Translations under genes and position numbers: made by a program | The notes under the pieces: model-generated | What the model saw: only the letters and a program-made list of their open reading frames with translations | Database searches by the model: none | What the model was told of the DNA's origin: nothing | Virus record (IMG/VR): IMGVR_UViG_3300027881_000536 | Location: 32,001 to 96,000 of that record | Direction: 5' to 3' (one strand) | Source of the DNA: a virus | DNA: 64,000 nt | Part shown: piece after piece, positions 1 through 62,978 of the stretch | Layout: each line of letters opens with the position of its first letter | How positions within the stretch are numbered: the stretch's first letter is position 1

Positions 1-3000
1 AAACAGCATGAGGAAGGTGGCCATCATCCGATAGATGACCCTATTGAGGATAGAAAACAGGATGCTGCAGATAATGCTGGTGGGTTGAGGGTCGACGAAT
101 TGATTGACCATATGTATTCGGCTCTAGGTAAGAACATGACGGCTATCGCCAATAATGTAATGGGTCACCCATTAGACCCTGAAGGGACTCATATACCACC
201 GTACTTTGACAAGCACTCACGAGTTAAACAATCAATAATCAGAGAGGGTTTGGAACTAGCGCATTTGTCACCACTGTCTCCTGATTTCAAGAAGAAGAGA
301 GGTAATAAGTCTGGTTATGATACTCCAGAAGGTGGTAGAACTAGTCAGAAGAGTATGGCTCAAATCATGAAAGTCCTTGATTTGCTTGATGAAGTAGGAG
401 TACCAAAGGGGTGGAATATCGACAATCCTGACATCATGGAGGAATTTGATAGAGTAGTTCTTCCTTATCTTGATAACAAATTCAAGAATAGTGCTCGAGA
501 TAGATTCGAGAGTTGGTTTCACACAGACCCTAAAGCCAAGTTGAGAGGGAGGGCTAGAGAATATCAATCAGCCATGGCTCATGATAATTGGTCTTTGGAA
601 GCGAGAGTAGAAGGCGAGACATCGGAACCACATGAGATTACTGAGAATCATGACATGAGTCCTTCTTGGTTATGGCACCACAGTTTACCAAAGACTGGGT
701 ATAATTTGTATGGGCCTGATATTGCTGAGATTCTCTATGGGGTTATCCCTTGTCTTGGTGAGAAGGTGAAAAATAGTGAGAAGATACTTTTCGATTCGAT
801 GGGCACTCGCCCTCCTCATTTTGACAAAGAGAAGAGTAATGAGCATCCTGATAATTATGACTATGCAGAGTGGCTAAAGGGGATTGGTAATGGTCCAGCA
901 CCAGAGACTTGGGATAATGACCCTAGTATACCATTCACAGAAAAAGGTGGTATGTCAGGTTTAGCCATGGAGATTGATGCCTATCTAAGAGGTGGTGAGT
1001 TGGGACCAATAATGGGAGAAGTCTACAAGAGATTCTACGGTGATTTACCCCTTAATCCTCACAAGGGTGATTTCGTAAGTAGACTCTTGAAAGGGCGCCT
1101 TGGGGAGGTTTATGGTGAACATGAAGAGGCTACAATGGCAGAAGACTCACCAGAGCGAGCCAGACAAATAGGTATGACAGAAATGAAAGATGTCACTGGT
1201 GAGAGTGCAGTTGGTGAGCGTTCTAGTGGGTATGGGGTTAGAGTGGCTGGACCTTCTGAAGTGACAAGGAGAAAGGAGGCTGACATAGCAGGGGCTCCAG
1301 ATACACTGCCGAAATCTATCGTAGAAAATTACCCCCTAGGTAGGCGACCTCTCAATGAGAGGATACTTAGGATGATGCTTCCTATTGCTGGTGCTAAAGA
1401 TACTTTCTTCTTGAGAGAGGCATTACAAATGGGGCTTAGAGAGCCAGCGTTACAATTGCTAGAAGCGTTACGAAAGAAATGGGGCGGGGCTGCTGTACCG
1501 AAAAATGAAATGGAAGACCGCTTACTTACTATGGATGAGGCTGTTGATAGAAGGACAGATGAACTAGGGCAGATGGTTGACAGGGCGACTATTCTAAGAG
1601 GTTCATCAGGAGGCATAGTTTTCCCTTATCATAATCGTGGCCTTATAATGCCTGCAGATACTCTGAGGATGATAGAACTAGGGCAGATGTATCCTGGCTT
1701 GGTCAACCAGAGTAACCATGACGGCTATAGGGATGAGGGGGCCAGTAGAGGTTCTGCAATTCTAGACCAACTTGGTCGTAGTGGAGTTACAGAGAACAGA
1801 GGGCTGACTGCTGCTATGTTGGGATTACTTTGCTCAGCATTGATGGGTGGTGGCTCTGCTGAACCTTGGTCATTTGAACATAGAGGGAATGAGAAGGCTT
1901 TGGTTGTAGACCACCCTGGACAATGGGGAGATGAATTCATGGGAAATTTGGCTAATTGGATTCGTAAGCAGCCACATCCACACATTGAGGGAGAGGAAAT
2001 TGGAAACCAATTAGGTGGTTGGGAGAATGAAGATTGGCGTCATCGTGTGGCTGACAAGAGATTCATCTACCCTGTCAATAAGCACATGAATGATGAGGGC
2101 ATAGAGGAATATAGATTACCTTTCAAGAAGACCGGTGGTAAGCATGGTCTGCAATTCAAGGTTCCTGATTTAGATGTATGCAGTCCTTATCCCGAGAAAG
2201 CATTAGGAGATGGATTGAGTTTTTCGCACCCATTCAGTATACAAAACCAATTGCAGGATATAGTCGGCTCCAGAGGTATCTATCCTTCTTGGACTACACC
2301 TAGAGATGGAGAACAGCATATCCAATCCATGCCTAAGCCGTGGATGGTGATTCCCAAAGAGAGTATCATAAATTACAATGGGCAAGACTATGTTGTTGCT
2401 GAACACCCTTCTGTAATCAAGGACGAGTTTAGTAACTATCTATCTGATTATGATAAGAGTCAAGGTAACAAACAACATAAGGACCTGATACTAGGACTTC
2501 GGAGAGAGGCTAAAAATATGGCTCCCAAGATGGAGGGGGGATGGGAGAAGAGTGAGAAGCAACGAGGATGGATGATGACCATGGAAATGTTGACTAGGGC
2601 TGTGGGGACAGGTCACCAAGCGGCTAAGGCCGTTTTACCTTTCATAATGGCCCACCTTGCTTCTAATCATACCCCTGATATAGAACAAGGAAATCAAAGT
2701 GAGTCTCAATGGAAGTTGGATGATTTCACGGAGAAGTATCTAAGGCAGCACAAAGGAGATACTTCTGAGGAGGCTCAAAGGAAATATGCTACATTATGCC
2801 ACTTGTACGAATTGGCTTGGAATTATGCAGACCGTCATGGCCCTGTTAAAAGAGGCTTATTCCTTGAGCAATTAGAGAAGCAAGGTCATAACTTCACTGA
2901 TGAACAGAAGGAAGGATTCCTAAGTCCTGATTTGAATGTGAACAGTGTGCAAGGTCATAAGGAATTCGTCATGCCCAAACATGGGATGGACACAAACCAT

Positions 3001-5709
3001 CCTTTCTATGAGGCCTTCCACGAAGGTATAGGGCAGAATGTAGAAGGATTGAACCTTCTGCGTGCTTTTACCAACAAACGATATGGAGATGATGAACGAT
3101 ATGAAGGATTGATGGATGCAATTGAAGATATCATGAATCAACATTTCTCTTGGGGTTCTGAATCGGTTGGTCAACCTGGCTTGGCTCCAGAGGACTGGAA
3201 AACGAAAAGCGGTCAACCTATGTCCTTCAAATTAAAGAAATTATTCGAGACTTCACAACAGGACCATGACAAAGCCATGTATCAAGCAGACCATTATGAG
3301 AAAGGTCTGGATGGAGGTGATGACCCTCTTTGGTATATTCCAGAGTCTGACGCTCCATTTTCAGATGAGCATCCTGAGCATAGGACGAAGAATGTGGAGA
3401 GGGCTAAAAGGGGTAGTAGGGCTCAGATGTCCTTGAATACAAAAAGCATCTTGAATACTGTAGGTGATGAGCACGATTCAGATTATAGTATAGAGGACCA
3501 TAGAACACTCAATCAATTCATAGTTGCTATGGGGCCTGTGATTAAGGATTTGGTAAGTGAACTAGATAAGGTTAATTATCTGCCAGAACACGCTTCACAC
3601 CAACGATTTGATGAGAATGACCCCCAAGATGTAATGAGAGAATATTGTAGACTTTTGTTCCTTCGGGGTCGTATCAATCCCAAGTATCAACCTAGGCCTT
3701 GGTCATATCGCTCTTCTGGTATGAAACAGATAGGTGATGATAGCGAGCCTGGTGTGATAAATCTTAATAGAACACGACTCTCGAATCTATCTAGTGTCCA
3801 TGCACATGATTCATTCCACCAGTCAGAAGTTATGCCTTTCACTATGGATGTCGAGAATCATATACCTGACCTTCATAGTAGAGGGTCTCCTACTCCCCCT
3901 TGGGATATTGGTGTAGGTGGTGAGTACCAGAACAATTCTCAAGACCCTACAAGAGACCAACGCTTGGGCCATGAGGAGATGCAAGAGGGAAAGAGAGATA
4001 CAGCCATTGCTACTCCCTATAGGACTGTCCACTCTAATATTCTTAATTCAGCATTCGGTCAGAGACTTGCTATTACTGGGGATAACTCTAACATTGGAGC
4101 GTCACTCCAGTATACGGAGGATGATGAGGTGAGGTATTCGTTGGATGTTTTGACTGATGTAGACTTGCTCCTGAAAGAGGAAGAAAGGGATAAGGGTAAA
4201 CCTGCTCCTGTTAAAGCCATGCATCGTATCTTTGACCTTGATGATTTAGAGTATCTCAGAGGGTTTTCTGATGATTGGGTAGTTACTTCATGGCCTGCTG
4301 GTACAAGAGTTATTGTAGAGAAGAAAGGTAAGAAGGTTAAAGCCCGAGATGCAGAAGGTAAATCTGTTACTCTACCCAATGAAATTAAGACCGGTGTTAA
4401 AGATGCTCATGACAAGGATTTCTTAATAGATGCCATTTGGGATGAAGACAGATTATGTATTGTGGATATCTTGGAATGTGAAGATGATGATTTGTGTAAT
4501 AAGCCCACCAAAGATAGAGTCAGGCATCTAAGGGCTCACTTTGAGTCTACTGAGAAGGTTAGTACTCCAGCACCAGTAAATACGAAGAGAGTTGATGGGC
4601 AGGGTCTCAAGAGAGCAGTCAAGGACCTCATGAAGGAACCTGATGTAAAGCAGGTCCTATTGAGAGATGCTGAGTCCACTTACATGCGTGGAGAAATGAG
4701 GCACCCAAAATGGGTATTACTTACGCCAGACCATCAAATTGATGTTTTAATTCTATCTTCCTCTGGGGTTGATAACCATCTGATTGGAGTTGGGCCATTG
4801 TATGAACAGGATGCTAAGGCAATTGGTAACAGGGCGGTTCGTTATGATGGGGATTATTACATGGATGTAGGTACAGTCTCGCGTTCAGGTTTGGAAGAGG
4901 GGATGTACATAACTGTGAAGACATCAGGTATTTCTCATTCGGCTAGAAGGAATTATTCAGTTTACCGATTAAATGCACCTCGTTATCTGAGAGAATCTGA
5001 GAGTGGAGCGACTGACAGTGTAGAGACTTTGGAGATACTGCGTCACAGGCAGGAAGGTAATGTACCTCACAAGGTTCGGATTAAGAAAGGGAGAATCCAC
5101 ATAGATGTACCTACAGGACATGTAGTCTATGAAACAGAAGTGTCTGGGAATGCATTTCTTTTGAAAGATGTAGATTCCCCAGATGATTATACTCTAAGAG
5201 TGACTCAAAGCCAAATGGAATATTGGTCACCGCTGGCTGCAGTTCTTTTGCGTTCTGAAAGAGAGGGAGAGAAGGAAGAGATAGAACCAGAGCCTGCGGC
5301 TAATCATGATAAGAAGCCAAAGAAGGTGCTACCGAAAAGAGATGAGTTGCTCAAAGACCCTGAAGTCGTCAAGACTGTAGTTCTAGCATTAGAGACAGTA
5401 GATGGTATGCTCAAAGAGAAGGTTACTTGGACTGGTCCTAAGGCTCTAGGTATTGATTATGGTACTCCCATAGAATCACCTCATGGGCCTACTGATATAA
5501 CTGAACCATATGATATGCCTGACCATGACCCTGCTGCTAGACAGTCTGAACCTAAGGCATGTTGGTGTGGTGCTGAAAAGGGAGAAGAATGTAAACAAGG
5601 CATGGGTCACGATATGGAAGATTGCCCCAAGGCTAGACCACCAGATAGTGATGAAAAGCCAGAACATCTCACCGTTTCTCAGGATTCTCGCGATGTTTCT
5701 TCCGTGTGA
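1..5709 (+). CDS. Giant head-module protein (>1900 aa, 5'-truncated) with a C-terminal degenerate ATP-dependent DNA ligase-like domain and a terminal Cys/His cluster
   Basis: Frame 1 is open from base 1, so the TTG at 85 is not the true start. About 4200-5050 reads like ligase motifs I/III/IIIa/IV/V (VTSWPAGTR, FLIDAI, IVDIL, KQVLLRDAESTYMRG, KWVLL) followed by an OB-like segment. The C-terminus has CWC..C..H..C. It lies directly upstream of the prohead protease. Confidence 0.75.
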   Translation, partial: KQHEEGGHHPIDDPIEDRKQDAADNAGGLRVDELIDHMYSALGKNMTAIANNVMGHPLDPEGTHIPPYFDKHSRVKQSIIREGLELAHLSPLSPDFKKKRGNKSGYDTPEGGRTSQKSMAQIMKVLDLLDEVGVPKGWNIDNPDIMEEFDRVVLPYLDNKFKNSARDRFESWFHTDPKAKLRGRAREYQSAMAHDNWSLEARVEGETSEPHEITENHDMSPSWLWHHSLPKTGYNLYGPDIAEILYGVIPCLGEKVKNSEKILFDSMGTRPPHFDKEKSNEHPDNYDYAEWLKGIGNGPAPETWDNDPSIPFTEKGGMSGLAMEIDAYLRGGELGPIMGEVYKRFYGDLPLNPHKGDFVSRLLKGRLGEVYGEHEEATMAEDSPERARQIGMTEMKDVTGESAVGERSSGYGVRVAGPSEVTRRKEADIAGAPDTLPKSIVENYPLGRRPLNERILRMMLPIAGAKDTFFLREALQMGLREPALQLLEALRKKWGGAAVPKNEMEDRLLTMDEAVDRRTDELGQMVDRATILRGSSGGIVFPYHNRGLIMPADTLRMIELGQMYPGLVNQSNHDGYRDEGASRGSAILDQLGRSGVTENRGLTAAMLGLLCSALMGGGSAEPWSFEHRGNEKALVVDHPGQWGDEFMGNLANWIRKQPHPHIEGEEIGNQLGGWENEDWRHRVADKRFIYPVNKHMNDEGIEEYRLPFKKTGGKHGLQFKVPDLDVCSPYPEKALGDGLSFSHPFSIQNQLQDIVGSRGIYPSWTTPRDGEQHIQSMPKPWMVIPKESIINYNGQDYVVAEHPSVIKDEFSNYLSDYDKSQGNKQHKDLILGLRREAKNMAPKMEGGWEKSEKQRGWMMTMEMLTRAVGTGHQAAKAVLPFIMAHLASNHTPDIEQGNQSESQWKLDDFTEKYLRQHKGDTSEEAQRKYATLCHLYELAWNYADRHGPVKRGLFLEQLEKQGHNFTDEQKEGFLSPDLNVNSVQGHKEFVMPKHGMDTNHPFYEAFHEGIGQNVEGLNLLRAFTNKRYGDDERYEGLMDAIEDIMNQHFSWGSESVGQPGLAPEDWKTKSGQPMSFKLKKLFETSQQDHDKAMYQADHYEKGLDGGDDPLWYIPESDAPFSDEHPEHRTKNVERAKRGSRAQMSLNTKSILNTVGDEHDSDYSIEDHRTLNQFIVAMGPVIKDLVSELDKVNYLPEHASHQRFDENDPQDVMREYCRLLFLRGRINPKYQPRPWSYRSSGMKQIGDDSEPGVINLNRTRLSNLSSVHAHDSFHQSEVMPFTMDVENHIPDLHSRGSPTPPWDIGVGGEYQNNSQDPTRDQRLGHEEMQEGKRDTAIATPYRTVHSNILNSAFGQRLAITGDNSNIGASLQYTEDDEVRYSLDVLTDVDLLLKEEERDKGKPAPVKAMHRIFDLDDLEYLRGFSDDWVVTSWPAGTRVIVEKKGKKVKARDAEGKSVTLPNEIKTGVKDAHDKDFLIDAIWDEDRLCIVDILECEDDDLCNKPTKDRVRHLRAHFESTEKVSTPAPVNTKRVDGQGLKRAVKDLMKEPDVKQVLLRDAESTYMRGEMRHPKWVLLTPDHQIDVLILSSSGVDNHLIGVGPLYEQDAKAIGNRAVRYDGDYYMDVGTVSRSGLEEGMYITVKTSGISHSARRNYSVYRLNAPRYLRESESGATDSVETLEILRHRQEGNVPHKVRIKKGRIHIDVPTGHVVYETEVSGNAFLLKDVDSPDDYTLRVTQSQMEYWSPLAAVLLRSEREGEKEEIEPEPAANHDKKPKKVLPKRDELLKDPEVVKTVVLALETVDGMLKEKVTWTGPKALGIDYGTPIESPHGPTDITEPYDMPDHDPAARQSEPKACWCGAEKGEECKQGMGHDMEDCPKARPPDSDEKPEHLTVSQDSRDVSSV

Positions 5710-5741: not shown

Positions 5742-7130
5742 ATGCTGATGATGGAAGCACCGCTAGACAGCCCTATTCTCATCAAAGGTAGGACTGGAGA
5801 CCTAGTTGTTGCCGGCTATGCTTCAGTTGAAATGGTCGATAAACAAGGGGACCTGATAACTAAGGGCGCACTACGAGAAGCATTCAAGAAATTCATGGGT
5901 TCTCCAGGCTTTAGGAATGTGCAACTGGCTCATTCAAATATCCAAGTTGGTTCTGTCATTCCTGAGTATTCGGATAGTAGTGGGCGTGTCTGGAAGTCTG
6001 AAGTAGACGATACTGGTATGTTCGTAGTTATCCAACTCCGTGATGATATCGAAAAGGCTCGTGAGGTAGCCGCAGAAATCCGAAAGGGTAACCTCAAATC
6101 ATTTTCAATAGGTGGGCAGGCTTTCGAGCGTGTCAACAAGAGTAACTCCGAGAGAGGAGATTACCGAGAAATACGCAGGATGGAACTGCATGAAGTTACC
6201 ATCTGCGAGAAGGGCATCAATCCAGAGGCCCAATTCCGAATCCTGAAAGAGGATAAAATTGAAATAAATAAAGGTGAAAATATGACAGATGCAATGACAG
6301 AACTACAGGATGTCTTGGAAAGGTTATCCAAGAGGCTAGACGATGTTGACGAGGCTGAGTCTGCCCTGAAGGGCAAAGACGATGCTGAGAAAGGCAAAGA
6401 CGATGCTGAAAAGGAAGACAAAGAAAAGGCTGATGTAGCAAAGGACAATGAAGACAAAGAATCTTCTGAGAAGTCTGAGAAAACGGAAAAGATGGACGAT
6501 GTGATTACCACAGAGTATCTTGACTGGCTAGAATCGACTGTGAAGTCTGCTGGGTATGACCCATCGGCTGCTCGCGGTCACTTTGATAACACAGAGGGAG
6601 TCGAAAAGGCTTACCTCCAAGAGGGTGCTCATGGTTACGACCATCGTGGACAGGGTAGTATCGAAGGCGCTGGTGAGGATGACTCCGGTAAGCGACCCAA
6701 GATGAATATGGGTGCAGGACCGAGTGGTAACAAAACCGTCATCAAGACAGATGAGTTCATCCATCCGGAAATGGTTTCCTCTGCACAAGTAGAGGAAGCA
6801 TATCAGGTCTACAAGGCCGCTGCTCTTGAGCAGCAGTTCAAGTCTGACCTAGGCAACAACTTCTCAATAAGATTACAAAAAGAAATACAGAATAGTCAGA
6901 ATGAGACCGAGAGGTCATCATTCGATGCGCGTGGGCCTCTACAAGACCTACAGAAAGCAGTTCTCGCTCTAAGCGGTAGGATTGAGGATGTTTCCACCAC
7001 ACCTGGTGAAGATTTCCAGAAATCTGCAGATGCTTCGAGAGTAACTATTCCTGAGACAACCGAGATGGCTGCCTTGTCGTGGGACGATGTCCACCGACTA
7101 GCACACTCGGCTCTAAGGGGTGATAACTGA
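5742..7130 (+). CDS. Prohead protease (HK97/XkdF-like) fused to a C-terminal scaffold region
   Basis: N-terminal VAGYAS..VDKQGD, catalytic-type LAHS and SFSIGG, and HEVTICEKGINPEA. The C-terminal half is acidic/coiled-coil-like. It lies immediately upstream of the capsid gene with TGATG coupling. Confidence 0.88.
   Translation: MLMMEAPLDSPILIKGRTGDLVVAGYASVEMVDKQGDLITKGALREAFKKFMGSPGFRNVQLAHSNIQVGSVIPEYSDSSGRVWKSEVDDTGMFVVIQLRDDIEKAREVAAEIRKGNLKSFSIGGQAFERVNKSNSERGDYREIRRMELHEVTICEKGINPEAQFRILKEDKIEINKGENMTDAMTELQDVLERLSKRLDDVDEAESALKGKDDAEKGKDDAEKEDKEKADVAKDNEDKESSEKSEKTEKMDDVITTEYLDWLESTVKSAGYDPSAARGHFDNTEGVEKAYLQEGAHGYDHRGQGSIEGAGEDDSGKRPKMNMGAGPSGNKTVIKTDEFIHPEMVSSAQVEEAYQVYKAAALEQQFKSDLGNNFSIRLQKEIQNSQNETERSSFDARGPLQDLQKAVLALSGRIEDVSTTPGEDFQKSADASRVTIPETTEMAALSWDDVHRLAHSALRGDN
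6282..7130 (+). CDS. Putative nested in-frame scaffolding protein (282 aa, MTDAMTELQ...)
   Basis: In-frame ATG at 6282 is preceded by GGTGA (6273-6277), the same RBS motif used by neighbouring genes, and sits where the protease domain ends. Confidence 0.6.
   Translation: MTDAMTELQDVLERLSKRLDDVDEAESALKGKDDAEKGKDDAEKEDKEKADVAKDNEDKESSEKSEKTEKMDDVITTEYLDWLESTVKSAGYDPSAARGHFDNTEGVEKAYLQEGAHGYDHRGQGSIEGAGEDDSGKRPKMNMGAGPSGNKTVIKTDEFIHPEMVSSAQVEEAYQVYKAAALEQQFKSDLGNNFSIRLQKEIQNSQNETERSSFDARGPLQDLQKAVLALSGRIEDVSTTPGEDFQKSADASRVTIPETTEMAALSWDDVHRLAHSALRGDN
6372..6409 (+). repeat. 21-nt period tandem repeat in the scaffold (KGKDDAE x2)
   Basis: GGCAAAGACGATGCTGA occurs at 6372 and 6393. Confidence 0.9.
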
Positions 7131-8275
7131 TGGCGCGTAATTATGTAAGGACAATACAGGACATGGAGCGATACTACTACGGTGGTACCGCATTGACCGG
7201 GTACACCTACAGCAGTGGAGATATACTCAAGGCGGATGCACCGCTTCTGAGCACCACGGCTGGTACCTACCAGGCAATCTATGGCAGGAAGGTTTGGTCG
7301 CAGTTGAATCAAGAGTTCAACGCGTTCAGCATCCTACCAAAGAAGCCGTGGGAGCGAAGTGGATGGCGCATCATAACTGCCAAGCCTTCGTTCGATGTTG
7401 GTGGAGGTCTGGCTGAGAACGCCACACTGCCCGACACCACGAAGCCTGACTTCCTGCATGTGGCTGCAAAGCCCAAGACCATTGGCCACTCGTTCGACCT
7501 GAGCGAAGTGTCCATGTTCCTTTCCGATAAGGATGATGGTCTCGGAGATGTGCGCCAAGTGCTCAAGGAAGAGATGGGGAAGCACCACGCTGACCACATC
7601 AACAGGATGCTATTGGTAGATGTCGAGACCCCAGCGGGTAACGACTTCGAGTCACTGGACCGACTAACCTCGGACCCAGACTCGATGACAACTGGTACAG
7701 GCCATGTGAGTGCTACTACAGACCACGACCTATACTCTATCACACGCGATGGGAGTTCCGACTTCCACAGTGCTGAGGTAGATGTGTCGGCTGCGGCTAA
7801 CACTAACAGGAACCTAAGCCTGAATCAACTGGACGGATTGTTCCAGCAGATTTGGGTTCGAGGTGGTAACCCCAAGGTCATGCTGACTGGGTACGATACC
7901 CTGATGCGTGTGCAACAACTACTGCAGAGCCAGCAGAGATTCATGGAATCGAAGAGGGTCACCCCCACCTACAACGGTGTGAAGGGTGTGCCTGGTATCG
8001 AGGCCGGATTCATTGTGGCTACCTACAACGGCGTGCCGCTGATTCCGTCCAAGGATGTAGTAACTGACACGAGTGGAATCTCGAGGATTTACTACTTTGA
8101 TACGGACTACTTGTGGTTCCAGACTGCTATACCGACCCAATATTTCGAGTCGGGTATCGAAACCGGCGACCCGTTCGCCATCAACAGACTAGGCCAAGAG
8201 GGGCTCTACCGAACCATGGGTGAGGTATGGGACTCTTTCTTCGGCGCAGGAGGTTCTATCCGTGACCTTAAGTGA
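7130..8275 (+). CDS. Major capsid protein, HK97-like fold
   Basis: 381 aa directly after protease/scaffold. The C-terminal pattern YNGVPLIPSKD...IYYFDTDYL fits HK97-type capsid proteins. Codons are visibly skewed to C-ending, as expected for a highly expressed gene. Confidence 0.88.
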   Translation: MARNYVRTIQDMERYYYGGTALTGYTYSSGDILKADAPLLSTTAGTYQAIYGRKVWSQLNQEFNAFSILPKKPWERSGWRIITAKPSFDVGGGLAENATLPDTTKPDFLHVAAKPKTIGHSFDLSEVSMFLSDKDDGLGDVRQVLKEEMGKHHADHINRMLLVDVETPAGNDFESLDRLTSDPDSMTTGTGHVSATTDHDLYSITRDGSSDFHSAEVDVSAAANTNRNLSLNQLDGLFQQIWVRGGNPKVMLTGYDTLMRVQQLLQSQQRFMESKRVTPTYNGVKGVPGIEAGFIVATYNGVPLIPSKDVVTDTSGISRIYYFDTDYLWFQTAIPTQYFESGIETGDPFAINRLGQEGLYRTMGEVWDSFFGAGGSIRDLK

Positions 8276-19059: not shown

Positions 19060-22000
19060 ATGACACTCATAGGGAAAACCAGTCACTCCTTATTCTTCAA
19101 TGGGATAAGCGATAGCGTTGTATGCCCATCACATGAGTTTGCTTCTACAGGTATCAAGACTACTATAGGAGGTGACGAAGTTAGGTCCTCCCGCCCTGTT
19201 CTTGGTGAGAGGAGTGAGGAAGGTAGTTCATCTTCATCGACAGCCATGGTATCCAGTTTTTCAGTAGAGGCTTGGATTAGACCAGACTGTGGTGGGGTAA
19301 TTGCTTCCAAAGAAGGAATGTTCAAACTAAGTGTTGGCAGTGTTGGTGCTCCAGCCCCTGCAGTATTCAGTGTGACAACTCGTACCAAGACAGGGGATGT
19401 AAGAGTCTTCACGGCTCGAAGTGCTCAGACTATCAGTGACAGTTACTCTGGTATCATCTATCCAACAGCAGGTCAGTCCTTCATCGAGAATAATACGGAA
19501 CTATCTAAGGGTGGGAGAGAACTGTTGCATGTCGTAGGTATGTTCAACGAGAGGAGAGTATCCATATTCGTCAATGGGCAAATAGTGGCTAGTAACAATA
19601 TATCCACTGGTTCTATGTGCATGTTAACTAACTCAGACCTATACCTAGGCGGTAAAGGTGGTGAATTCAGAGGCTATATCGAGGGAGTGCACTTGCGTCT
19701 TGGTGTTGATGAGGATTCTGTCATACCAGCCCCTATAGTAAGGCAGAGTAGTACTGTTGGGCTGTGGAGATTCGAGGAACCTGTAGAGGTTGAGGATACT
19801 GAGTTCTATATCAAAAGTGGAGTCAATGCAGGGGATACTGTTCTCACTCTAGATACTACACAGGTCCAAGAACTGTATGAACTTATCAGTGGTGAATCTA
19901 TAACTATGCCTTCTAGTTACACGGTACCTTCTCTAGGAAATTATCAAGTTGGTGTAACTACTCATAGTGATGGTGCTAAGAAGGTCGAGATTGCTCACAC
20001 TTCAATCAATTTACTCATCAACCCAACTGGGACTGATATCAAGACTGGTAAGCCCAATAGCAAAGCACCTGAGAGGGTAAGACTCAAGTCCATCTCATCC
20101 AGTGGGTCCATCACAGTAGAGAGTATCCATTTGGATTTCGATGTGTCTACTGACACAGGGTCTAGAGGGGTGCTTCATGATAGAACTGCTTTCGATAATA
20201 CTAGCAACCTCGCACATGATAGTTTAATAGTAATACTCAGGTCTGATTTGTTACTAGACCCTGGCACTGGTAGGCCCATGCAACCACCTGGTCTTGGTTC
20301 TCAAGCAATAGATAGGAACGGTATGACAGTCATAGATGAGAGTGGTAATGGATTTCATGGTTTTCTACACAGTCGTACTATGAGTATCAACAAGTCTGGT
20401 AACCCGTATACTGTCAGTAATGCAAACTGGACAATAGATACTAAATTCCAAGTAGGCCATTCGGGTAGACACAAGTTCTCACATTGTTCAGGTCATCCAT
20501 ATCTGAGAATGCTTCCAAGAGCGTCAAAAGAAAGAGTGACTCAAACTGTGGATGGTCTATCTGACAGTATCTATGCTGTGTTCGATGGTCAGAGTATCAA
20601 CCTTCCTGAACAAGTTCCAATCAATAGTCAGATATCTTTACTCAAGAGCAACTCCCTCTTAGATGGTACTCGTGTCATCACTACAGGAGTTATCTCTCAG
20701 ATAAAGAGGAACGGTTTAAGCACTCTTGACCCTGATAGAGATGAGATAATTTCTATAGGTGGTTCTGGATTCAATATCACTCCCTTCCTTTTGAAGTCCC
20801 ATGCTACTAGTGGAGTGGAGGCTACTGATGATGTCTACAATCTACATTTGGCACCAGAGATTGAGTCTAGAGTGGCTATCTTGCAGACCGGAGACACTGA
20901 CTTCCCATATGTGGAGATTCACTACAACGCGATAGACCTCACAGGAGGAACAATTGGGGCCAATGGTCCTGCCTTGTTAGTTAGTAAGACTGTGCCTTCA
21001 GGTGGGTCGGTTATCAACACTAAGAGAGTGGCTGATAGAATCAATACCCTCCTAGGTAGTGGTACTATGACACTCCATGCTCCAGGAGGTATCATTCATG
21101 TCAAAGCGTCTAGAGTGGCTGAGATGGATACTCTGTTCAAGGACCACAATCTAGCAGGTGATAACACTGGAGGAAGGCAGTATGAGGTAGAATTGGACCT
21201 GAGTATGACACCCCCCAATTACACTCCACAAGTTGCTACAGACCCACCGAACTCACCACCTATAGGTGTAGATTCTTCTCATGCTAATGACTCATCACAC
21301 CCTTCTGTATATCATCATCTTGTTTTGAGAGACAACGGTGCTGCAGCCAAAAGCATTCCTGATGACTCTGATGATTTCAGGTTAACAGCGAAAACAGGTA
21401 ACAAAGGGCCTACTAACCAATCTACTCATGCATTTGAGATGTTCGATGTGATAGACAATTACTCGGACAATAAGGGAGTGAATATCATTGTCCATCCCAC
21501 TGACAGAAGTAGAAATCTACAACTCAGTAAGTTCACGAATGATATCAATGACCCCTCACTCTTCAGTCTAGAGTTCCTAATGTCAAGAGGGAGGGTGAGT
21601 TCTTTCAGGAGTGAGCGTACTGAAAGAGGTCTCATTCTAACGATGCAAGGTAGAGGATTGATGGATGATGTGGCAGCCATGGCTTCTGAGTATATTGGTG
21701 AAGGTTCACCAGACTCTATCATAGTGAAAGAGAGTAGACCTGATGCTCCTGTGGTCACTGTCACTCTAGGTGGGCCTGGGCAGGGTGCTGTAGAGACTAC
21801 ACCCACATGGGACAAGAGTCCACTGACTAGGCTGGGGTGGAATACTAGGAGAGATGGTGGGGCTAGGGTGACTGATTCTAGTAGCACTTCTTTGACAGTA
21901 ACACCATTGAATAATAATTCAGATGCTTTGGCTAGTTGGGGGACTTACATGTTCCCTGTGCGTGGTAGGATACATCTAGAGAATGGTGCTAGTGCTGAGT

Positions 22001-25000
22001 ACTATGACACTACTGCTACTGCTTTCACAATCAAATCTGGTGACCAGTCTGGTACTGGGCGTTTCATCAACGGTGATGGGTCTGAACAAGATACCTTTGC
22101 TAATTGGCTTACTGCTAATTCTGTAGTGAAAGGCCAGACTAATGTTCTTCTTGACCCTCTGTTCGATGAGGCTAGTGTGGTGTCTGATGGGACTACTATC
22201 AATGACCGACTCTTCCAAAGCATAGGAAGTGTTGCACACGATTACCAATTAGGTACTCAGTACGCTAGTACTAGAGCCCTAGTTGAGATACCAGTGTTTG
22301 GCAACCAGTTCTTCGATGACCCAAGAAATGGTGTATTCCCTGGGCCTGACAACAGCATGAAGATACATTTAGACCCCACACTCACAGCCCATTCTTGGGC
22401 ACCAAACCCTGTGGGAAGAAGGGCAATGGGAATTTCCCCTGCAGACCGGGATGTACTAGGTCCTTATCACAAGAGATGGATTGAGAACACTACTAAATCG
22501 GCTGTTGTTGTCACCAAGATGGATTGTGCATCTTCTGGTTACAAGATTTACTTTGATGACCTCAGTAAATCCTTCCCTGCTTTTGAGGAGGCTATCTCAT
22601 CATTCAGAGACATCACAGGAGTCCAGAAGGCCGGTACTAATGCTGGTGTCGCTGAAGTAGCAAACACTATCATGCATAGACGCATTTACACTCCTGAAGG
22701 GGAGTGGGCTATCGTAGAGTCAAACTCTGGTAGTGAGTATGTAACTGTCAACAATCCTCTTAGCACTGGGACTAGTGAACATTTCTGGAAGAATTTCTCT
22801 GAAGGGGGGATAGTTTCCAATATAGTAAGTGGGAGTTATGGGGAACCTCTTAGAGGTGACCCTGCATTAGAGAGTACCGAGAATGAGTTTCGTAGGCCCT
22901 ACTACTATGACCGGGCTAATGTTCAGACTCAGGGTGGTAATATTGACTATGGTCTTAGGCAATATGTCAGTGCTGTCGAGTTCAAGGAAGGTCCTACTGC
23001 CAACCCACACGCTAAGAAGATAGAGAGTGGTGCTGCTACTTTTGAGATTATATCTTGGTCTAGTCCTAATGCTGGCTATATCAGTGACAATCTACCTAGT
23101 TTTACGGGCTCTAGTTGGACTGACACTACGATGGAAGCCATCAATCAAGATGATGAGATACTGTTATTCACCCACCATACAGATGGAGATAAGATTGTAG
23201 TATCATCTGGTACCCCAGCAGTTGGTGATATCTACACTCTTAAGCGATTGAAATTTTCACAGAATAATTTAGGTATAACCACTACCAACTATTTCGATAT
23301 CCATGATGGTTATGGGGTAGGAGAACAGTCATGGAAGAATACTCTCAACAAGACATGGAACAACCCCTATGCTCCGGGTGGATTGAGGCATGGTGATACT
23401 GTATGGATGAATATGCACTACACCAATCCCCATGCCATCGAGGGTCTATTCTGTAAGTCTCGCGGAGTTCTCAACGAGTTCCTAGTTTGGAATGGTTTCA
23501 ATGGAGGTAGAGGAGAACTAGGGACACAGGCTCGTGATAGCATACCACTCGAGAACTTCCTGATAGGTAACACCTGTATGGAGACTGCTCAGAACTTCGT
23601 GCAGCATGTGAACAAGACAGTGGAACTTAACTGGTTGGAACTGGGATACTCAGCCTCAGAAGTTCCTGTGGTAGCATACCTTGACCCATACTTAGCCAAG
23701 GAGGGTCACGCACGCGTACTACTCTATGATGTGGCTCATGACAGGGAGTTCATAGCCTTCCATGACATCCACATGCAAGTTCAGACAGGGCAGGCTACCC
23801 CTAAGGTCAACGGATTGGATATTGCTAATGGGTTCTATAGCCAAGATAAACACAGAAATAACAGTAGTCAAACCAGTGGTGGGGCAGCAATAATAGAACA
23901 ATCTGACTTCATAGAAGGGGCTTATGCTCACAAGAGTAGTCCTTACATGGAAGTGACTACTAGCGGACAGACTCACAATGCCTATGGTATGAATGATGCT
24001 ACAATATTCTATGGCTCTTCTTTCCTAGGTAGCACTGGTAGGACAGAGAACAGTACAGTAAGAACAGAAGACCTAACCTATGGGGTTAATTATACAGAGA
24101 AAAGACATCAGTTGGAGACTGCTACTACGAATCGTTCCACCTTCTTTGATACACCTGATGGCACTAGGGCTATACCGGCTTTCCTTTGCCTCAAAGGAAA
24201 TCGAGCAAATACACTTGACCTGACCACACATTCAGAATCTAGATTGCAGCACCTCCCACAATGGAAAGATATGGATTTCGTGAGAAGATTGACACTTGAT
24301 TTGGGTGAGATAGGGCAGGCTGATGGGGTATCTAATACTGAGTCGGCTGTGCGTGAGATGGTTAGAAGAGTGAATCAAGCCGCTGCTTTACAGGGTAGAA
24401 GTGTTGGTGGCTCTACCCATGACCCTGCTACTTTCTGGGATGATACAGCATTCAATGGTGACAAGGGTTCCCATATGGGGTATCTTAGAGCCCATTTCGG
24501 TAGGGCTGTAAAGGACTTGGATGGTAATGATGGGTATACCATTGTGATACACAGTACAGTACCAGGTGCTTCTGGTAGGAACTTCTGTGCTTGGTTGGAC
24601 AACAGCAAGGGTCAAGCAGAGTATAGACCTCAGTTTCTAGTTGGTCATGGTGGTAGATTCCGTAGTTTTTGGGCTATGCCAATGGAAGGAGAGGATGAGA
24701 ATATGCACCCGGCTCCTATGCCTATCACCAAGAATGGAAGGCCCTTTGCTCCCATTACTACATTGAGACAGATGGTTCCACCCGATGATGAGGATGAGGA
24801 ATTCATCAATAACTTGGCTGATTATGAAGGTACCAATACTAGGAGAAATAGTGAGATGGCCACTGGTCGTGGTGCTAATACTGTCTATCAAGAGTCGTTT
24901 GAATCACAGGGTGATGCTAATAGAATGGTAGAAGGTCTGAGGACTGGGACTCGTGCTCGTGCTCGTATCAATTTCGGGGGATTGGTAGCCAGTGGTGTAC

Positions 25001-28000
25001 CAGGTTGGGCACCTGATGCTGGCTCCATGGGTTTTGGTATACTCAACAAAGGAGGTAGATTTGACAAAATCTACAATGATGATAGTAACACCACTTACTC
25101 TACCTATGTGACAACAGATGAACAATCGAAAGATGAAGTTGGTAAGGGGGAGTTATATGGTTTTAGATTCACTGACCACAGAGATAAAGACCATACAATT
25201 AGGTTAGTTTACCGTGAGAAGGGTCAATCTTTCGCAAATAACAATACTGTATTACCACCAGGTTTAGAGAATGAGATAATTATCTCGTTTGATGATAGAG
25301 ATATAGGTAAGGGGGGCTTTACTGTAGGTAAGCATATGAAAGGTTCTACCTATCCTGTTACTATTGACGCAGGAGAAGATAGTGTTGGTGATGATATCAC
25401 TACTAGTGTGACATGGCGAGGTAATAGTTGGAATGGTATAAAAGCACCATCGGCAGGTTATCCAGTCTCTACTGCTTCTGTCAGTGGTAGTAATCTATCT
25501 ATCACATTGAGCAACATATGGTATACAGATGCTTCTACTGCTACTTCTTTGGATTATCTTGGGCTACTAGGTTTCCCTGAAGAAGGTCTCTTCATTTACA
25601 CAGACAATCATTCTAGTTCTCAAACAACCAAAGTCTTCCGCTATACATCTCGTTCTCATAAGTCTGCTGCTAGTGATGCTAATGGTACTATGTCCACCCA
25701 CTCTTTCTATGGTGTTACTGGAGGTACTCTTGATACTAGCAATATGAGTGCTGAATACGCTACTATCAGCCCTATGCTCAACTGGACTACTATAGTGACG
25801 GATGAACTCATCGCTGCTGCCGTAGAATATGCTATGGGTGTCGACCCTAATACTGCAAGTGAGTTTGACTGTAGTAAGTTGTATGGTCCTGATGGTCGAA
25901 CTTACAAGGAATGGATGGGTGATGCTGCCACTACTGCTATACAGATTCATACTCTGAATGATAAGAAGAAAGTCACTCCCTTAGGAGATTTATTTTCAGT
26001 ATCTAGAGAGATAGATTTAGGACTCTATGCTGGTAATGCTGAGACTTATTTAACTTCAACCCAAGTTGATGATGGGGTAGTAGTTGATACTGGTTATCTA
26101 CCTAAAACCTTGTTGAATATCACAAGCAAGTTCAGAGGTGAGAATGCTAATACTGTAAGTCCTACTTTCATCAAGAGTAATGGTGATTCACTATCTACAT
26201 CTGATTGGAAGAAGCACTTGAGAGGTGAGAAGTTCACTGCTTATGCGGGAGACCACATCACCCCTTGTATTAATAATGTTATAGTGAAAGTCACTAGTGT
26301 TTCTGGTACCACCATAACAGTGACTCCTTGGCAGTTGTTAACACCATATGACCCTGCTATTGCTGCTCTTGATAATTACTTCTCAGAATTGTACACCCTC
26401 TATGACCCTAATGGTAAGTGGGCTACATATCAACTAGTACCGGCTGGCAACAATGATTCCGGTGGTAAACTAGAACTGGTCAACAAGCACAGTGATTTCT
26501 CAATTGCTCAGAATAATCATCTTTCTACTTGGGGGCCTGAGAAAGACCCTAGGGCTAGAGAATTTGCAGGGCATCGCTTAACAGGGAACACTTACGGGGA
26601 GCCACTGACCTATTTCCGTGGGGCTCATGATAGCCCTGACCATAGTGTCCCACTTTACTTCGGGGGTGGCTTCAGTGGTGTGGTTATGGATATCAATGAC
26701 GGAACACAGAATGACTATACTGAGTTCTACTCTCACCCCTACGCTTCCGGTCCAACAGGGTGTGCTGGACTGCAGAATGTGGGAGAGAACATGGGGGCTC
26801 ATGCCATACTAGATACTACTGCGATGCTAGCCATGTTCCCTGGCACTCCATTCCTTAATCAACACAGAGGTGAATCCCAACCCCCATTCACTAATGCCGA
26901 TGCCCTATTGGCTCCAGATATGAATGTCAAGAGTGGTAGTGGGAGCAATTTAGCAGGTAATACTACTCAACTGGTGGGGTATGACAATGATTCTGATAAG
27001 GCTACTAGGTACAAAGATGATGGTAGTGATGTAGATAACCAAACCACCATCACCCACCCTACTCCTATAGTCCTTAGGTTCGCTCACCCTTATGCGAGAT
27101 ATACTGATGCTGCCAGTGGATGTGCTGATGAGGTAGCCTACATTGTGTTTGGTCCTGGTCAATCTGTACCAAAGAACATACAGATGTATGCCAGTAGTGG
27201 TGTGAAAGAGCCTACTGCTCTTAAGACTGTGAGTGCTAAGTTCACACATGTCTATCACAATGACCTGGGTGGTATTTCTTTGAGAGGCTCTGGGACTGAG
27301 CCTGGTAAGTATCACCCTAATGAGATGAGCAAGGGATGGAAGAATAGTGGGACTTATACCGATAGGGCTGGACTCTTCAAGCCATATCTACCCCCTACTA
27401 TGTCTTGGCAAAGGAGTGCTGAGTATCCCTATGGAGTTCTGAGAAACTGGGAGCCTGCTTGTGGTACACCAAGTGAGTGGTTGAATACTGAGTTCGACTC
27501 TAGTAGTGCTTCACTCATTACCAATCACTGGGCTAGTAGTAAAGCCACTGCATCATTGACAATAGCACATCCAATGTTCACACAGACTACTGCTGATGCA
27601 TTGTATTACCACTGGCATATGGATGGTGGGTACCCTGCTGGTGGTAACTGGATGGACAATGCTATCGCTAAGAATCCTACACATCCTACTACTGGAAATA
27701 GGTTACCTGATAATCAAGAACACTCTATCAATAGTGAAGACATCACTCTAGGGCTGAATGCCAGTATGTTCAGAGTAGGTGCTCTAGCCCTCGAAGACTA
27801 TGACAGGGGACTAACAGAAAATACCACAGGAGATGGGACCACTAGGGATGTCTTCGTAGTTGATGCCACTAGGGTACAGAACTCAGAGGAACTGGCTACC
27901 ATCATCTCAGCAGCCATTAACTCCTATCCCGGTGAGGGTAATCTCAAAGCCATGGGCGGGACATTCCTCCCTTCCTTCCAAGATGCCATAAGACAGGATA

Positions 28001-31000
28001 GGTATGCTTGGATTAATGTCGGGATGGTGAAAGATAGTGGTTATTCCAATGGCACTACTCTGACTACGGATGAGAGGTTACCGAAATATCTTCCAGAGAA
28101 GGGATGGTTGAGGGTCAGTAAAACAGGTACTGGTGTGTTCTATGGTAGATACACTGCCCATGATGATGATGCTAGTGGTGAGGGTACATTCACCATAGGT
28201 ACTAACTGGCGTAGTGGTGGTGCTAGACTAGAGAGTCCTACGATTGGGAGTGGGACTACTGCAGGTAACCATGACGCTGCTGCTATTGATGACTCTTGGA
28301 CAATCTATGTATGGTCAAAGACAGGTAATCTGAGGTGGAGTAACGGTGCACCTGAAGCATTGCATACTGCAGACGCTTCTACAAGTAACTGGGATACTAA
28401 TGTGTTCCATCATCTCGCTGCTACTCAAGTCCACTTCAATGGCTTCGTAGATGCTATAGACAGGACCAGACCAGTGGGTGCTGTAGGATGGCATGGTGAG
28501 AGATACTCCTATCTGAATAGTCTCAAGGTAGCCAAGACTACTACTGGTCATGGTATTAGTGCTGGTCTAGGGGCATGGCATCCTCTACTAGGCTTCAATC
28601 CATATGGGAGTGCTATGGGAGTCCACGCTCTCAATGGTGCTACTGCTGCTTATGCACAAGCCGGGGCTACCGCCTCATTCACTCAAGACTCGACTGGTCT
28701 GAATAGTGGGCTACACCCTAGACACTATGTTGTGGTATCTAATGAAGCGGAGTTACCTATCATAGCGAAAGCAGACAGAGATGGTCTACTACTTTGTGGA
28801 GATATGCTAGACAAGAGATGGGCTGCTAGTAGCAAGACTGGTGGTACAGTCATAGCCTCTCATAATGCTAGGCACAACAATGACAGGTTCGCTGCTTATG
28901 CTCATGGGGGCCCTCATGTGGATGCACAATTTGCTAAGGATTTTGCTGCCCCTTCTAGTAGTAATGGTGAGTGGGCAGCCAACATTCCAACCGCTGGTGA
29001 GTTGTACCCAATGGAATCTTGTCTATTCCCTACCGGGGACCTGTTCTACGATAGGCTAGAAAACCCAGGAGTGGCACACTACCCACAGGAAGACCCCATC
29101 AATCACAATGACATAGGCTCTAACACTTTAGCAGCACAATCTGCTGTGTTAGCAGCACCTTATTCCTTTTGGAAGGGTAAGAGTGCTGCTCGAAACTTCT
29201 TCACTAATCATGTGGTTTGGAAGAGGATGGACGGTGGTAATCTATGTATGCCTGCCTCTAATGCTAGAGGATTAGGTGCTGTCCCTTGGGTGTGGCGTAA
29301 GGTAGGTAATTCCTATGTGAAGTTCGGGGAGACTATCTATGGTAACACTCGTTTCTCGTTCGAGACTACCAATGCTGCAGTGTTCCCTACTGTACAGGCT
29401 CAGGAGTTAGCCCACCCTCAGTTAGCAGAGAAATACCCAGTGGAGATAGGGGCCGCTTTGTCTATACCCAACGAGGAGATACAATTTGAGGCTATCACAG
29501 TGGTCGATGACTCAGGTCAGGAGCACAAGATAGAGGGTGGCTCACCTCTAGGTACTGTGATTAGAGACTTTTCAAGAGTAGGGGGGAGAGATATCCAAGG
29601 TCCTGCTTTATCAGGCTCTGGTAATGAGCCAAATCTATCTATTAATCTACCAGACCCTAATACCATTCCTGGTAACATTCTAGTGAGAAGTGGTTTCGAT
29701 AAGGTGCAGGCTTACCAACATGAGACCATGGGGGCTGGTGGACTTCAAAGACCTGACCTACCTGACGCTGTAGTGAGCAGCAACTTCGACTCAACTAATG
29801 AGAATCCATCAACCAACCCATTTTGGGAGAACGAGGGATGGGAAAGAGTAGACAATAGTGAGACCAGCGAGGTGGGTACAGGTTTCCCTTACAGTAAGAG
29901 TGGGAGCATGGATGATAAGGCCCCTCTACAGACCTCCTATGAGCCACATGATAGGGCACTCTACTTCCATCTAACCAAGATGGGTTGGGGGTACACTGAG
30001 AGAGAACCCCTAGGTATAGTCAGTGCTACTACTAACGGAGTCACCACTAACACCATGACTCATAATCCACTGACATTCGTGAGTGTGAGTGGCTCAGTTT
30101 TAACTGCTAGTGGGACTATCACTGCACCCATTTGGCAAGCCGAGCAGACTCCTGATGGCAGGTCATTCCTTACTGTCAATGGTCATGTGGTATCATTCAC
30201 AGGGGTCAGTGGCTCGACATTTACTGGCTGTAAGTTCACTCCAGGCTTCACAGCCACTAACGGGAATATGATGAAGCCCTCGTTTTATGTTCCTGCTGGG
30301 AGCACTCGCCACTTCGCTGCTAGGAGGCTCAGAGACCATGCTGAGGTCAGTGGAGAAAGCCCAGACAAGGCACCGATTGATTGGGTGGGCGTTGATGTCG
30401 ATGCTAGCCCAGCAACTGCCATTAGAGATGACCGTCTGACACCAATGCCCATACCTCGAATGGGACACCACTATGTAACGCCTACTATGGCTGTGATGCC
30501 TGGGCATTTATCTCACCCTCTCTATCAGAGAGTCTACAACCTCAATAGGGCTTACCAAGGTGCTACTACTAGCATAGAGCAAGCACAAGGGTACACTTCA
30601 GTGGAGAACAGCCTCATAGGTCTAGACAATGGTAGTCTATTGGAGGAAGAAGGTGTAGGGGTCAACGCCCTGATGTGGTTCTCATCCCCTTCAAGCCCTC
30701 ACCCCCCATCTGATATCCATGGTGGGGCATTCACTCTGATGGTAGAGACCAAGGTGAGATATGATGGCTATGGTATACTAGCCTTCGATGCTGAGAATAA
30801 TAGTGGTGACCATAGGCTCAAACTAGAGGCTGGTACAAACTACAGTACTCATTGGAACTTCCCAGACCCACTAGAGACTGGGGCATACCAAATTATTATT
30901 CAGCCTAACCTATTTGCTCAACAACTCATGGGGTTCAGTACTAACTATGACTTTGGTGCTGATAGTAGTACTCAGTACCCCCTTCTCACTGACCAACAGG

Positions 31001-48722: not shown

Positions 48723-48875
48723 TCACTCTTCTTCATCTTTGGGTAGATTCAAAGCATAAAATGAGAGGTCATTGAGTAGTGAGAAAATCATCCCACCGAC
48801 AGTAATGGCTACAGGTATCACACAGCATAGTGAGAATAGTATGTAAAGCAGGGTAGTAGCCCAATCAATGTCCAT
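48723..48875 (-). CDS. 50-aa single-pass membrane peptide, not in the ORF track
   Basis: Manual translation MDIDWATTLLYILFSLCCVIPVAITVGGMIFSLLNDLSFYALNLPKDEEE; overlaps the chaperonin stop; followed by a second stop. Confidence 0.7.
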   Translation of the reverse strand: MDIDWATTLLYILFSLCCVIPVAITVGGMIFSLLNDLSFYALNLPKDEEE

Positions 48876-62623: not shown

Positions 62624-62978
62624 CTATTTCCTCGAACTGTCTCATAAGTTCGGAGATGTCACCATGATTCATCTTACGAGCAGTAGGGGCATCCATAGTG
62701 ATTAGCAATTTCTGTAGGTTACCCCCATCCTTCACTGCCTCCCATACGGGTGCTAGAAGTGAGAGGACCTTCTGTATCTGCTCCTTGTCCCTCAAGACTC
62801 TACCATGCACACCCTTTGTTGCAAGCCATAGATTCAGTTCGGGTTCGTCTTCCATACTTGTATACACCTTTCGATGCACTTTGTATCCTAGTTTCCGCTT
62901 GGGGGAGAAGTGAATGCTGGCTTGGAAGCGAGCATCTCGGGCTAGCCATGCTAGGAAGAAATCATCGTGCCTGTCCAT
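62619..62978 (-). CDS. Degenerate single-domain LAGLIDADG-like protein
   Basis: FFLAWLARDARFQASI...KLGYKV follows the LAGxxDxDGxF-x-I...GYxV layout but with a non-canonical core. Confidence 0.5.
   Translation of the reverse strand: MDRHDDFFLAWLARDARFQASIHFSPKRKLGYKVHRKVYTSMEDEPELNLWLATKGVHGRVLRDKEQIQKVLSLLAPVWEAVKDGGNLQKLLITMDAPTARKMNHGDISELMRQFEEIV

Follow-up and report, generated by a model that had tools for sequence, protein, structure and literature searches.

A family-conserved DNA-ligase fold lacking catalytic residues in a giant head-module protein of a magrovirus-type archaeal virus

Magroviruses are among the most abundant archaeal viruses of the surface ocean. An ATP-dependent DNA ligase 'embedded in the structural module' and belonging to a distinct ligase family was described in magrovirus groups A and B (Philosof et al. 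2017, PMC5434244). A search of its text turned up no mention of inactivation, lysine or adenylation, later magrovirus papers list 'DNA ligase' only, and the structural-module ligase has been unexplained since 2017. The subject here is a giant gene in a 64,000 nt stretch (the window), bases 32001-96000 of the 118,155-bp IMG/VR record IMGVR_UViG_3300027881_000536, a genome rated complete by CheckV. The C-terminal module of the 2395-aa product is a true homologue of ATP-dependent DNA ligases, OB domain included, and is strongly conserved yet without the catalytic residues. Virus type and head-module position match those of the published ligase; however, that gene was presented as a ligase, whereas here the domain lacks catalytic residues, lies C-terminally in a 2395-aa protein and is flanked by protease-type motifs.

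Among solved structures, archaeal and eukaryotic ligases (Pyrococcus furiosus, 2cfm; T. sibiricus, 4eq5; human Lig1, 1x9n) and LigD (1vs0) share the nucleotidyltransferase (NTase) plus OB fold with the module (Z 17-23), and the order of motifs I-V is recognizable, but the module has neither the N-terminal DNA-binding domain nor the catalytic lysines and Glu, and is embedded in a giant head-module protein. A fold of this kind without catalysis has a precedent in the m3G-cap-binding domain of Snurportin-1, a capping-enzyme-like NTase fold that has no catalytic Lys and binds its nucleotide non-covalently. The homologue P0015 carries a precomputed match to this family (PF21974, SPN1_m3Gcap_bd), whereas the match of the giant protein is weak and below the Pfam threshold (P0001 residues 1422-1526, E 0.036, 14.5 bits, cut-off 27), its structural neighbors are DNA ligases with capping enzymes weaker, and a cap-like ligand is not expected in an archaeal virus. 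Packaged head proteins offer a further comparison, namely the phage polyvalent proteins encoded next to MuF/portal (Iyer et al. 2017, PMC5512222) and those internal proteins of T4 whose capsid-targeting sequence is cleaved off. As with these, the giant is a large multidomain protein, its gene placed between portal and protease. The likeness extends to a hypervariable body, to terminal tags and protease-type motifs in the genome, and to distant relatives that join ligase, methylases and protease. Unlike the polyvalent proteins, the present genome has no MuF domain (no PF04233 match in the whole genome), and packaging is putative here; 'ligase' in the polyvalent-protein survey refers to RNA ligases only (PMC5512222).

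The full gene (L002:12522-19709) begins with a GTG codon 1479 nt left of the window, and homologues of its product start at the matching position. Pfam matches on the giant protein by itself stay below threshold (DNA_ligase_A_M, PF01068, E 0.11 and 12.7 bits with a cut-off of 26.2), and a comparison with PHROGs gave nothing. An exhaustive phmmer search with window:4168-5160 (331 aa) against 1.84 billion representatives matched 156 proteins, most of 1600-2500 aa. At the end of the list stand proteins of 670-1080 aa with PF01068 at E 1e-11 to 1e-29, and the canonical K-[YF]-D-G-x-R occurs in all but one of the full-length ones. The module matches P0209 in phmmer at E 2.6e-20, a protein that carries PF01068 (E 2e-28) with KFDGVR, and P0215 in BLASTP at E 5e-28 over 327 residues. 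Both P0209 and P0215 have PF01068 at E ~1e-28 or better and are similar to ligases of solved structure (for P0215, 3gde at E 2.5e-17 and human Lig1 at ~1e-15).

An AlphaFold2 model of the module, built from a 35-sequence alignment, had a mean predicted local distance difference test score (pLDDT) of 88.1 and a predicted template modeling score of 0.79. The best 50 Foldseek matches in the PDB were ATP-dependent DNA ligases without exception (E ~1e-13). In VIA-align the NTase and OB domains together superposed on the closed P. furiosus ligase (2cfm) with Z 22.9 and a root-mean-square deviation (rmsd) of 3.9 Å over 277 residues, and the NTase alone on human Lig1 and archaeal ligases with Z ~19 and rmsd 2.5 Å over ~175 residues. 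In a viral structure library the neighbors were viral DNA ligases, followed by capping enzymes. Sequence searches with the domain found nothing among PDB sequences (phmmer, even at E 10) or in 50,697 cultured-phage records (tblastn), and P0209 matched only ordinary replicative or non-homologous end joining ligases there (Bacillus and rhizobial phages), no head proteins. A reading made from the sequence alone (the sequence-only reading) had proposed a ligase adenylation domain plus an OB-like fold directly before the prohead protease gene, and had suggested structure prediction against ligase structures as a check. Both the fold and the gene order are borne out, the giant gene ending at 5709 and the S78 protease gene starting at 5742; its placement of the fold in the 'C-terminal third' needs correction, since the ligase module lies in the last fifth of the protein.

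None of the catalytic residues is left. V-V-T-S-W-P-A-G-T-R-V of the giant protein aligns without gaps to I-V-Q-E-K-Y-D-G-L-R-I, so that Trp takes the place of the motif I Lys and Ala that of the Asp. Motif III is D-[GA]-E-A-V in active relatives, and here the Glu is deleted together with a 22-residue loop; the aromatic Phe of motif IIIa is Val, V-I-K-D-A of motif IV is L-L-R-D-A (Lys to Arg), and W-I-K-W-K of motif V is W-V-L-L-T, with Leu and Thr on the two lysines. SWPAGTR and every other motif string quoted in the sequence-only reading were recovered by translation at their positions, and its view that adenylation looks impossible is supported. Because these residues are lost, adenylation and nick sealing by the module are not expected.

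About 200 family members were taken in, with 206 sequences in the domain alignment and 86 domain sequences in the tree. The alignment of homologues proposed earlier as a check on Lys status shows that the loss is family-wide and not a private mutation. The motif I Lys column holds W in 91 of the 206 sequences, M in 37, Y in 25, I in 16 and K in 13, the remainder being H (7), L (6), F (6), Q (4) and R (1). Of the Lys rows, eight form the active-motif group, while the rest and the single Arg row belong to a group of ~1100-aa proteins reading K-P-x-G-x-R, in which motif IV is already Arg and the motif V lysines are absent. The giant clade has no Lys anywhere at this column, and neither there nor next to it has a substitute nucleophile been conserved.

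No match to PF01068, PF04679, PF09414 or PF01653 was found elsewhere in the 118-kb genome, so nick sealing is presumably left to the host, a reliance that the dead module also suggests. The genome as a whole shows no recognizable active ligase. For a gene of the replication module considered as another dead ligase (window 62962-63999, minus strand; full gene G000:C1:94962-96350), sequence comparisons neither confirmed nor refuted this identity: Pfam and phmmer against the PDB gave no match, and BLASTP found no similarity to the head-module domain.

Canonical motifs are kept in eight proteins of 670-1080 aa, and ~190 of the roughly 200 family members are of the dead form. The active-motif proteins P0209, P0213, P0215, P0217 and P0221 (696-912 aa) are homologous to the giant module from the HRIF/YRIF strand before motif I through the OB fold, where G.GP and YMDVG motifs are common to both, and they also have a hydrophobic-x-Lys motif ahead of the domain. 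They differ in keeping K-[YF]-D-G-x-R, D-[GA]-E, the motif IV Lys and W-x-K-x-K, in being much shorter and in having another C-terminal domain. In the two loci retrieved for this group (P0209 and P0215) the ligase gene is immediately followed by S78 protease and SU10-type capsid genes, and their neighbors match those of the window strongly (portal, E 1e-128 to 1e-136; capsid, 1e-81 to 1e-85; protease, 1e-68 to 1e-71). The gene of the ~1100-aa form also comes after portal and before protease, and the capsid proteins of these genomes share 62-65% identity with that of the window. The live, Lys-only and dead forms are syntenic. For P0225 and P0205 the gene context came from related loci.

In the tree the split between the 8 rows of the active group and the 78 remaining ones has a support of 100 in the SH-like approximate likelihood ratio test (SH-aLRT), and the ~1100-aa group that retains only the motif I Lys is sister (98) to the giant clade (95). 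The dead module derives from a ligase-domain protein of its own family, all relatives outside the active group forming one clade that shares the losses. Since the Lys-only group is sister to the giant clade on a tree whose root is assumed to lie on the active group, the data fit a stepwise loss in which the motif III Glu, the motif IV Lys and the motif V lysines would have gone first and the motif I Lys later. An origin of the giant by simple gene fusion was not supported, as the genes neighboring the active relatives have no phmmer similarity to the N-terminal body.

On two distant phage contigs a ligase domain and an S78_2 prohead protease are part of one polypeptide (1316 and 1392 aa), encoded in both cases between portal/MuF and the capsid gene (L073 and L069, Table 1). 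This fusion is the best argument available that the domain family works inside the head. Other fusions were seen among active-type relatives: P0225 and P0236 are joined to a metallo-beta-lactamase-fold domain and P0233 to a methyltransferase, which suggests cargo for DNA end-processing or modification. A conserved end domain, G-x-Q-R-x-G-Y-H-E-Y-x-L...W-T-G-Y, occupies the last ~120 residues of P0215, P0213, P0217 and P0221 and is also found in P0225 and P0236. A by-eye likeness of the C-terminal domain of the active relatives to the LigD 3'-phosphoesterase was dropped after Pfam and PDB sequence searches gave it no support.

The giant protein consists of two parts with very different rates of change. 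More than 110 homologues of 1600-2570 aa have the N-terminus and the C-terminal module in common. Column conservation is 0.10-0.31 along residues 41-1880 versus 0.42-0.67 along residues 1881-2360, and in alignments of the N-terminal body identity is merely 11-19% beyond the closest relatives. In genome pairs with ~81% identical ligase modules, the preceding 1000 residues are merely 28-45% identical, and nonsynonymous divergence (dN) for the same gene pairs is 0.12-0.15 in the module versus 0.56-0.85 in the upstream part, the first ~1880 residues evolving 4-7 times faster than the C-terminal module. The most conserved stretch, L-L-R-D-A-x-S-T-Y-M-x-G-E-x-R-H-P-K-W, corresponds to the former motif IV-V strands. 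These comparisons show, at the sequence level, a dead module held under strong long-term purifying selection while the N-terminal part diverged freely. Such conservation rejects decay into a pseudogene, and a module so strongly conserved yet without catalytic residues must have a role other than ligation.

Three hydrophobic-hydrophobic-Lys motifs are conserved across the family: L-T-D-x-D-L-L-x-K ahead of the ligase module (DLLLK in the window), [DE]-x-L-L-K after a Lys/Pro-rich linker (DELLK) and A-L-E-x-φ-[DE]-x-φ-L-K-E-K (DGMLK), φ being hydrophobic. The first is present in 33 of 36 full-length relatives, with its Lys kept in at least 90% of 113 sequences, and the second in about 26 of the 36. 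LK occurrences within the domain, away from the borders, are not conserved. In the models DLLLK falls in a segment with pLDDT <50, DELLK follows the disordered linker and DGMLK stands at the end of a helix, before disorder. The flanking of the module by Leu-Lys motifs (DLLLK and DGMLK), pointed out in the sequence-only reading, is thus a property of the whole family and lies in predicted disorder or at helix ends. DELLK, the conserved disordered tail, the active-motif relatives and the published magrovirus ligase were no part of that reading.

Similar motifs occur in the neighboring proteins. The major capsid protein (MCP) of the window reads SSGDILK followed by ADAP at residues 28-38, with the motif of this type at residues 30-34. 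Closer MCP relatives have [DE]-[IL]-L-K and then A-D at residues ~30-36, just ahead of the part that can be aligned to the HCTV-1 MCP, and distant ones have hydrophobic-Lys variants (R-L-L-K, N-I-M-K, and in HCTV-1 NVSK followed by AD). The protease of the window has FRILK followed by ED at the junction of its protease and scaffold parts, and the end of the protease domain, N-P-E-A-x-[FY]-x-[IL]-[LV]-K then [EM]-[DE], is found in all 88 aligned related proteases except that of HCTV-1. The HK97 protease, also an S78 enzyme, cleaves its own capsid protein after Lys103. The pattern [ILMV][LM]K plus a small or acidic residue occurs 32 times in the 36,955 residues of the proteome, and five of these are in the last 520 residues of the giant protein. 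The case for the border motifs as S78 protease sites is indirect but coherent.

A related element, [DE]-x-A-W-x-x-[LI]-K, is present within a few dozen residues of a terminus in 12 proteins, all encoded on the plus strand of the left ~24 kb (L067, G000:C1:1-18000, and L002; genome 385-24183), and one of them, of 3038 aa, is tagged at both ends. A-W-x-x-[LI]-K is a candidate capsid-targeting and cleavage tag. Both outer motifs of the module share its spacing, with Asp replacing Trp (P-L-T-E-A-W-N-L-L-K compared with V-L-T-D-V-D-L-L-L-K and A-L-E-T-V-D-G-M-L-K).

The overall explanation that we prefer, with a probability of about 0.55, is that of a packaged, protease-released, non-catalytic DNA-binding or anchoring module. 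That it is a selected pseudo-ligase of head-module origin is very probable, its packaging into the head is probable, and cleavage at the three Lys motifs is an even call. The giant protein would be loaded into the procapsid, where the S78 protease would cut after K1885, K2278 and K2298 (full-length numbering) and free a pseudo-ligase of ~44 kDa (about residues 1886-2278). This fragment would work without catalysis, either by clamping nicks or ends of the genome once packaged or ejected or as a conserved anchor that brings the variable N-terminal cargo into the head. We weigh a DNA clamp using the ancestral NTase-OB binding mode and a docking or anchor unit roughly evenly. Some ligand is favored, because charged residues on the old pocket strands are near-invariant, while a simple retained nucleotide pocket is disfavored by mildly acidic charge and by loss of the motif I Arg in subclades. 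Charge and isoelectric point (pI) were dropped as a discriminator, as they do not separate a DNA-binding from a structural role.

Several points weigh against this explanation. The canonical A-W-x-x-[LI]-K is not found in the giant protein, which has only a loose N-terminal look-alike, and the motifs at the protease junction and in the MCP could be structural elements and not cleavage sites. The motif I Arg is replaced by His, Pro or Gln in some subclades, so the old nucleotide pocket is not uniformly kept, and the dead domains are mildly acidic (median pI 5.9, net charge -9; pI 6.95 for the window copy), a charge that gives no favor to simple DNA binding. The tree was made with a quick IQ-TREE method and its root on the active group is an assumption, and dN/dS, at most 0.05 where computable, gives a bound and no more, dS being saturated. 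Finally, packaging, cleavage, ejection, DNA-end binding and genome circularization are steps that we infer.

A purely structural or assembly role, in which module and C-terminal tail would dock to scaffold, protease, capsid interior or portal and carry the N-terminal body with no functional DNA contact, is possible though rather unlikely. It would suit a module whose conservation tracks that of the very conserved capsid and protease, a tail that is conserved yet predicted to be disordered in the manner of binding peptides, a domain that is not basic and nucleotide-pocket residues that differ among subclades. However, a two-domain clamp of 320 residues would be a costly docking unit, the near-invariant R-D..Y-M-G-E-x-R-H-P-K-W on the old pocket strands resembles a site for a ligand more than it does a packing surface, and cleavage at the flanking motifs, if real, would part the module from the tail. 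More tentatively, and with some doubt, a packaged pseudo-ligase might use a rebuilt pocket (Trp for Lys plus R-D..T-Y-M-G-E-x-R-H-P-K-W) to grip a 5'-end, nick or nucleotide non-covalently and enter the archaeal cell with the genome as an end-protecting or pilot protein.

It is improbable that the module stays unpackaged and acts in the cytoplasm while genomes mature or are packaged, where it might hold nicks or concatemer ends for the terminase, with its site in the head module serving co-expression only. The position of the gene within the late operon, from portal to protease, would fit this, as would the plain listing of a ligase embedded in the structural module by Philosof et al. 2017. 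However, distant phages fuse the ligase domain to the prohead protease, which acts inside procapsids, and the motifs bordering the module agree with the likely maturation sites in the capsid protein and the protease. Furthermore, the related haloarchaeal virus HCTV-1 has MuF-like and zeta-toxin-domain proteins at the corresponding position, which are a typical kind of packaged cargo. That the domain is still an enzyme with new chemistry, its rebuilt pocket (Trp for Lys; invariant Arg/Asp/Glu/Arg-His/Lys) using another nucleophile or substrate, is very improbable. In its favor, the motif IV/V strands hold many strictly conserved polar residues, and a sister group retains a Lys at motif I. However, the clade as a whole has W, Y, F, H, M, I, L or Q in place of that Lys with no conserved residue there or beside it, the motif III Glu and its loop are deleted, and subclades have lost the motif I Arg.

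The existence of the gene and its unusual position were thus already published. The pseudo-enzyme nature, the giant hypervariable fusion, the series of live, Lys-only and dead forms, the border motifs and the ligase-protease fusions appear to be new, none of them having been found in the literature searched. If the reading of a packaged pseudo-ligase that grips DNA or a nucleotide and travels with the genome is right, it would be, to our knowledge, the first ligase fold turned into a packaged genome escort, and its live relatives would be the first head-packaged DNA-repair ligases that we know of. The puzzle of a ligase among head genes becomes a testable model, in which the capsid would take up enzymes and former enzymes that the head protease trims. 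Such genes should not be annotated as functional DNA ligases.

The coordinates of the features are collected in Table 1. The last ~500 residues of the giant protein comprise the exapted ligase module, a small extra domain and the conserved disordered tail. No domain was recognized in the N-terminal body, for which Pfam, PHROG and ESM Atlas gave no usable match. Its first 40 residues alone are conserved, and these hold the loose tag look-alike ([DE]-φ-aromatic-x-x-x-K). The small domain after the OB fold had no convincing fold match, the best PDB hit (Z 5.1) being within noise. The last ~95 residues of the giant protein form a tail that is conserved yet predicted to be disordered, which is the signature of a candidate binding peptide, and its P.GPT...DP core is also found in the ~1100-aa relatives. 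Within the tail (window 5560-5640), a Cys-rich CWCG..C..C insert, possibly a zinc knuckle, is confined to the closest giant subclade.

Table 1. Coordinates of the giant gene, its parts, neighboring genes and related polyproteins. Positions without prefix are those of the window; ORF, open reading frame.
Feature	Position	Strand	Basis or remark
Giant head-module gene, last 1902 codons	1..5709	+	Frame open at the left edge of the window
Hypervariable N-terminal body (full-length residues ~41-1880)	1..4161	+	Conservation and identity data
DLLLK, N-terminal border of ligase module, candidate protease site	4162..4176	+	
Ligase module, NTase + OB (full-length residues ~1891-2210)	4168-5160	+	
Nucleotidyltransferase (adenylation-type) domain, catalytically stripped	4195..4734	+	Superposition of model residues ~10-189
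Degenerate motif I, SWPAGTR	4288..4308	+	Aligned to E-K-Y-D-G-L-R of active relatives
Motif III/IIIa region	4420..4473	+	FLIDAIW 4420-4440, CIVDIL 4456-4473
Motif IV/V region	4654..4725	+	VLLRDA 4654-4671, PKWVLLT 4705-4725
OB-fold domain of ligase module	4735..4995	+	Structural alignments to 2cfm, 4eq5 and 3gde run to model residue ~297-303
Small beta-sheet + two-helix domain after OB fold	5071..5271	+	AlphaFold2 residues 8-74, pLDDT ~90
Lys/Pro-rich linker, predicted disordered	5272..5340	+	pLDDT <50; KKPKKV core conserved
DELLK, second conserved hydrophobic-hydrophobic-Lys motif	5341..5355	+	
DGMLK, third conserved motif, helix end then disorder	5401..5415	+	A-L-E-x-φ-[DE]-x-φ-L-K-E-K
Conserved tail, predicted disordered, candidate binding peptide	5416..5706	+	TWTGPKGLGI..ATP.ESP.GPT..LPD.DP
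Prohead serine protease (S78) + fused scaffold-like C-terminal part	5742..7130	+	
HK97-fold, SU10-like major capsid protein	7130..8275	+	
Group II chaperonin (thermosome), full-length	48865-50379	-	Cpn60_TCP1, E 7e-105
HNH-endonuclease-containing ORF, between terminase and portal	L002:7614-9059		
242-aa ORF directly ahead of giant gene	L002:11775-12503		Treble-clef zinc-finger match
Ligase-protease polyprotein	L073:2486-6436		PF01068, E 1e-21
Ligase-protease polyprotein with Dam-type + second methyltransferase domain	L069:5052-9230		PF01068, E 1e-17

By its gene content the source virus, whose host is uncultured, is a tailed virus of marine archaea of the magrovirus type, since its MCP is closest to those of Haloarcula tailed viruses and its thermosome, PolB and RFC genes agree with what has been published for magroviruses, which infect marine group II archaea (PMC5434244; PMC10768690). 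The closest cultured relatives of the MCP are those of HCTV-1, HVTV-1 and HCTV-5 (34% identity). In addition to the thermosome subunit, the window codes for a family B polymerase and an RFC-like clamp loader; thermosome genes have been described in magrovirus groups A and D (Philosof et al. 2017, PMC5434244). The genes stand in the order TerL, HNH nuclease, portal, three small ORFs (the 242-aa zinc-finger ORF among them), giant gene, S78 protease and MCP. Further downstream, the virus tail module has a single ORF of 5100 codons (window 19060-34362, plus strand), followed by ORFs of 588, 777, 1294 and 1383 codons.

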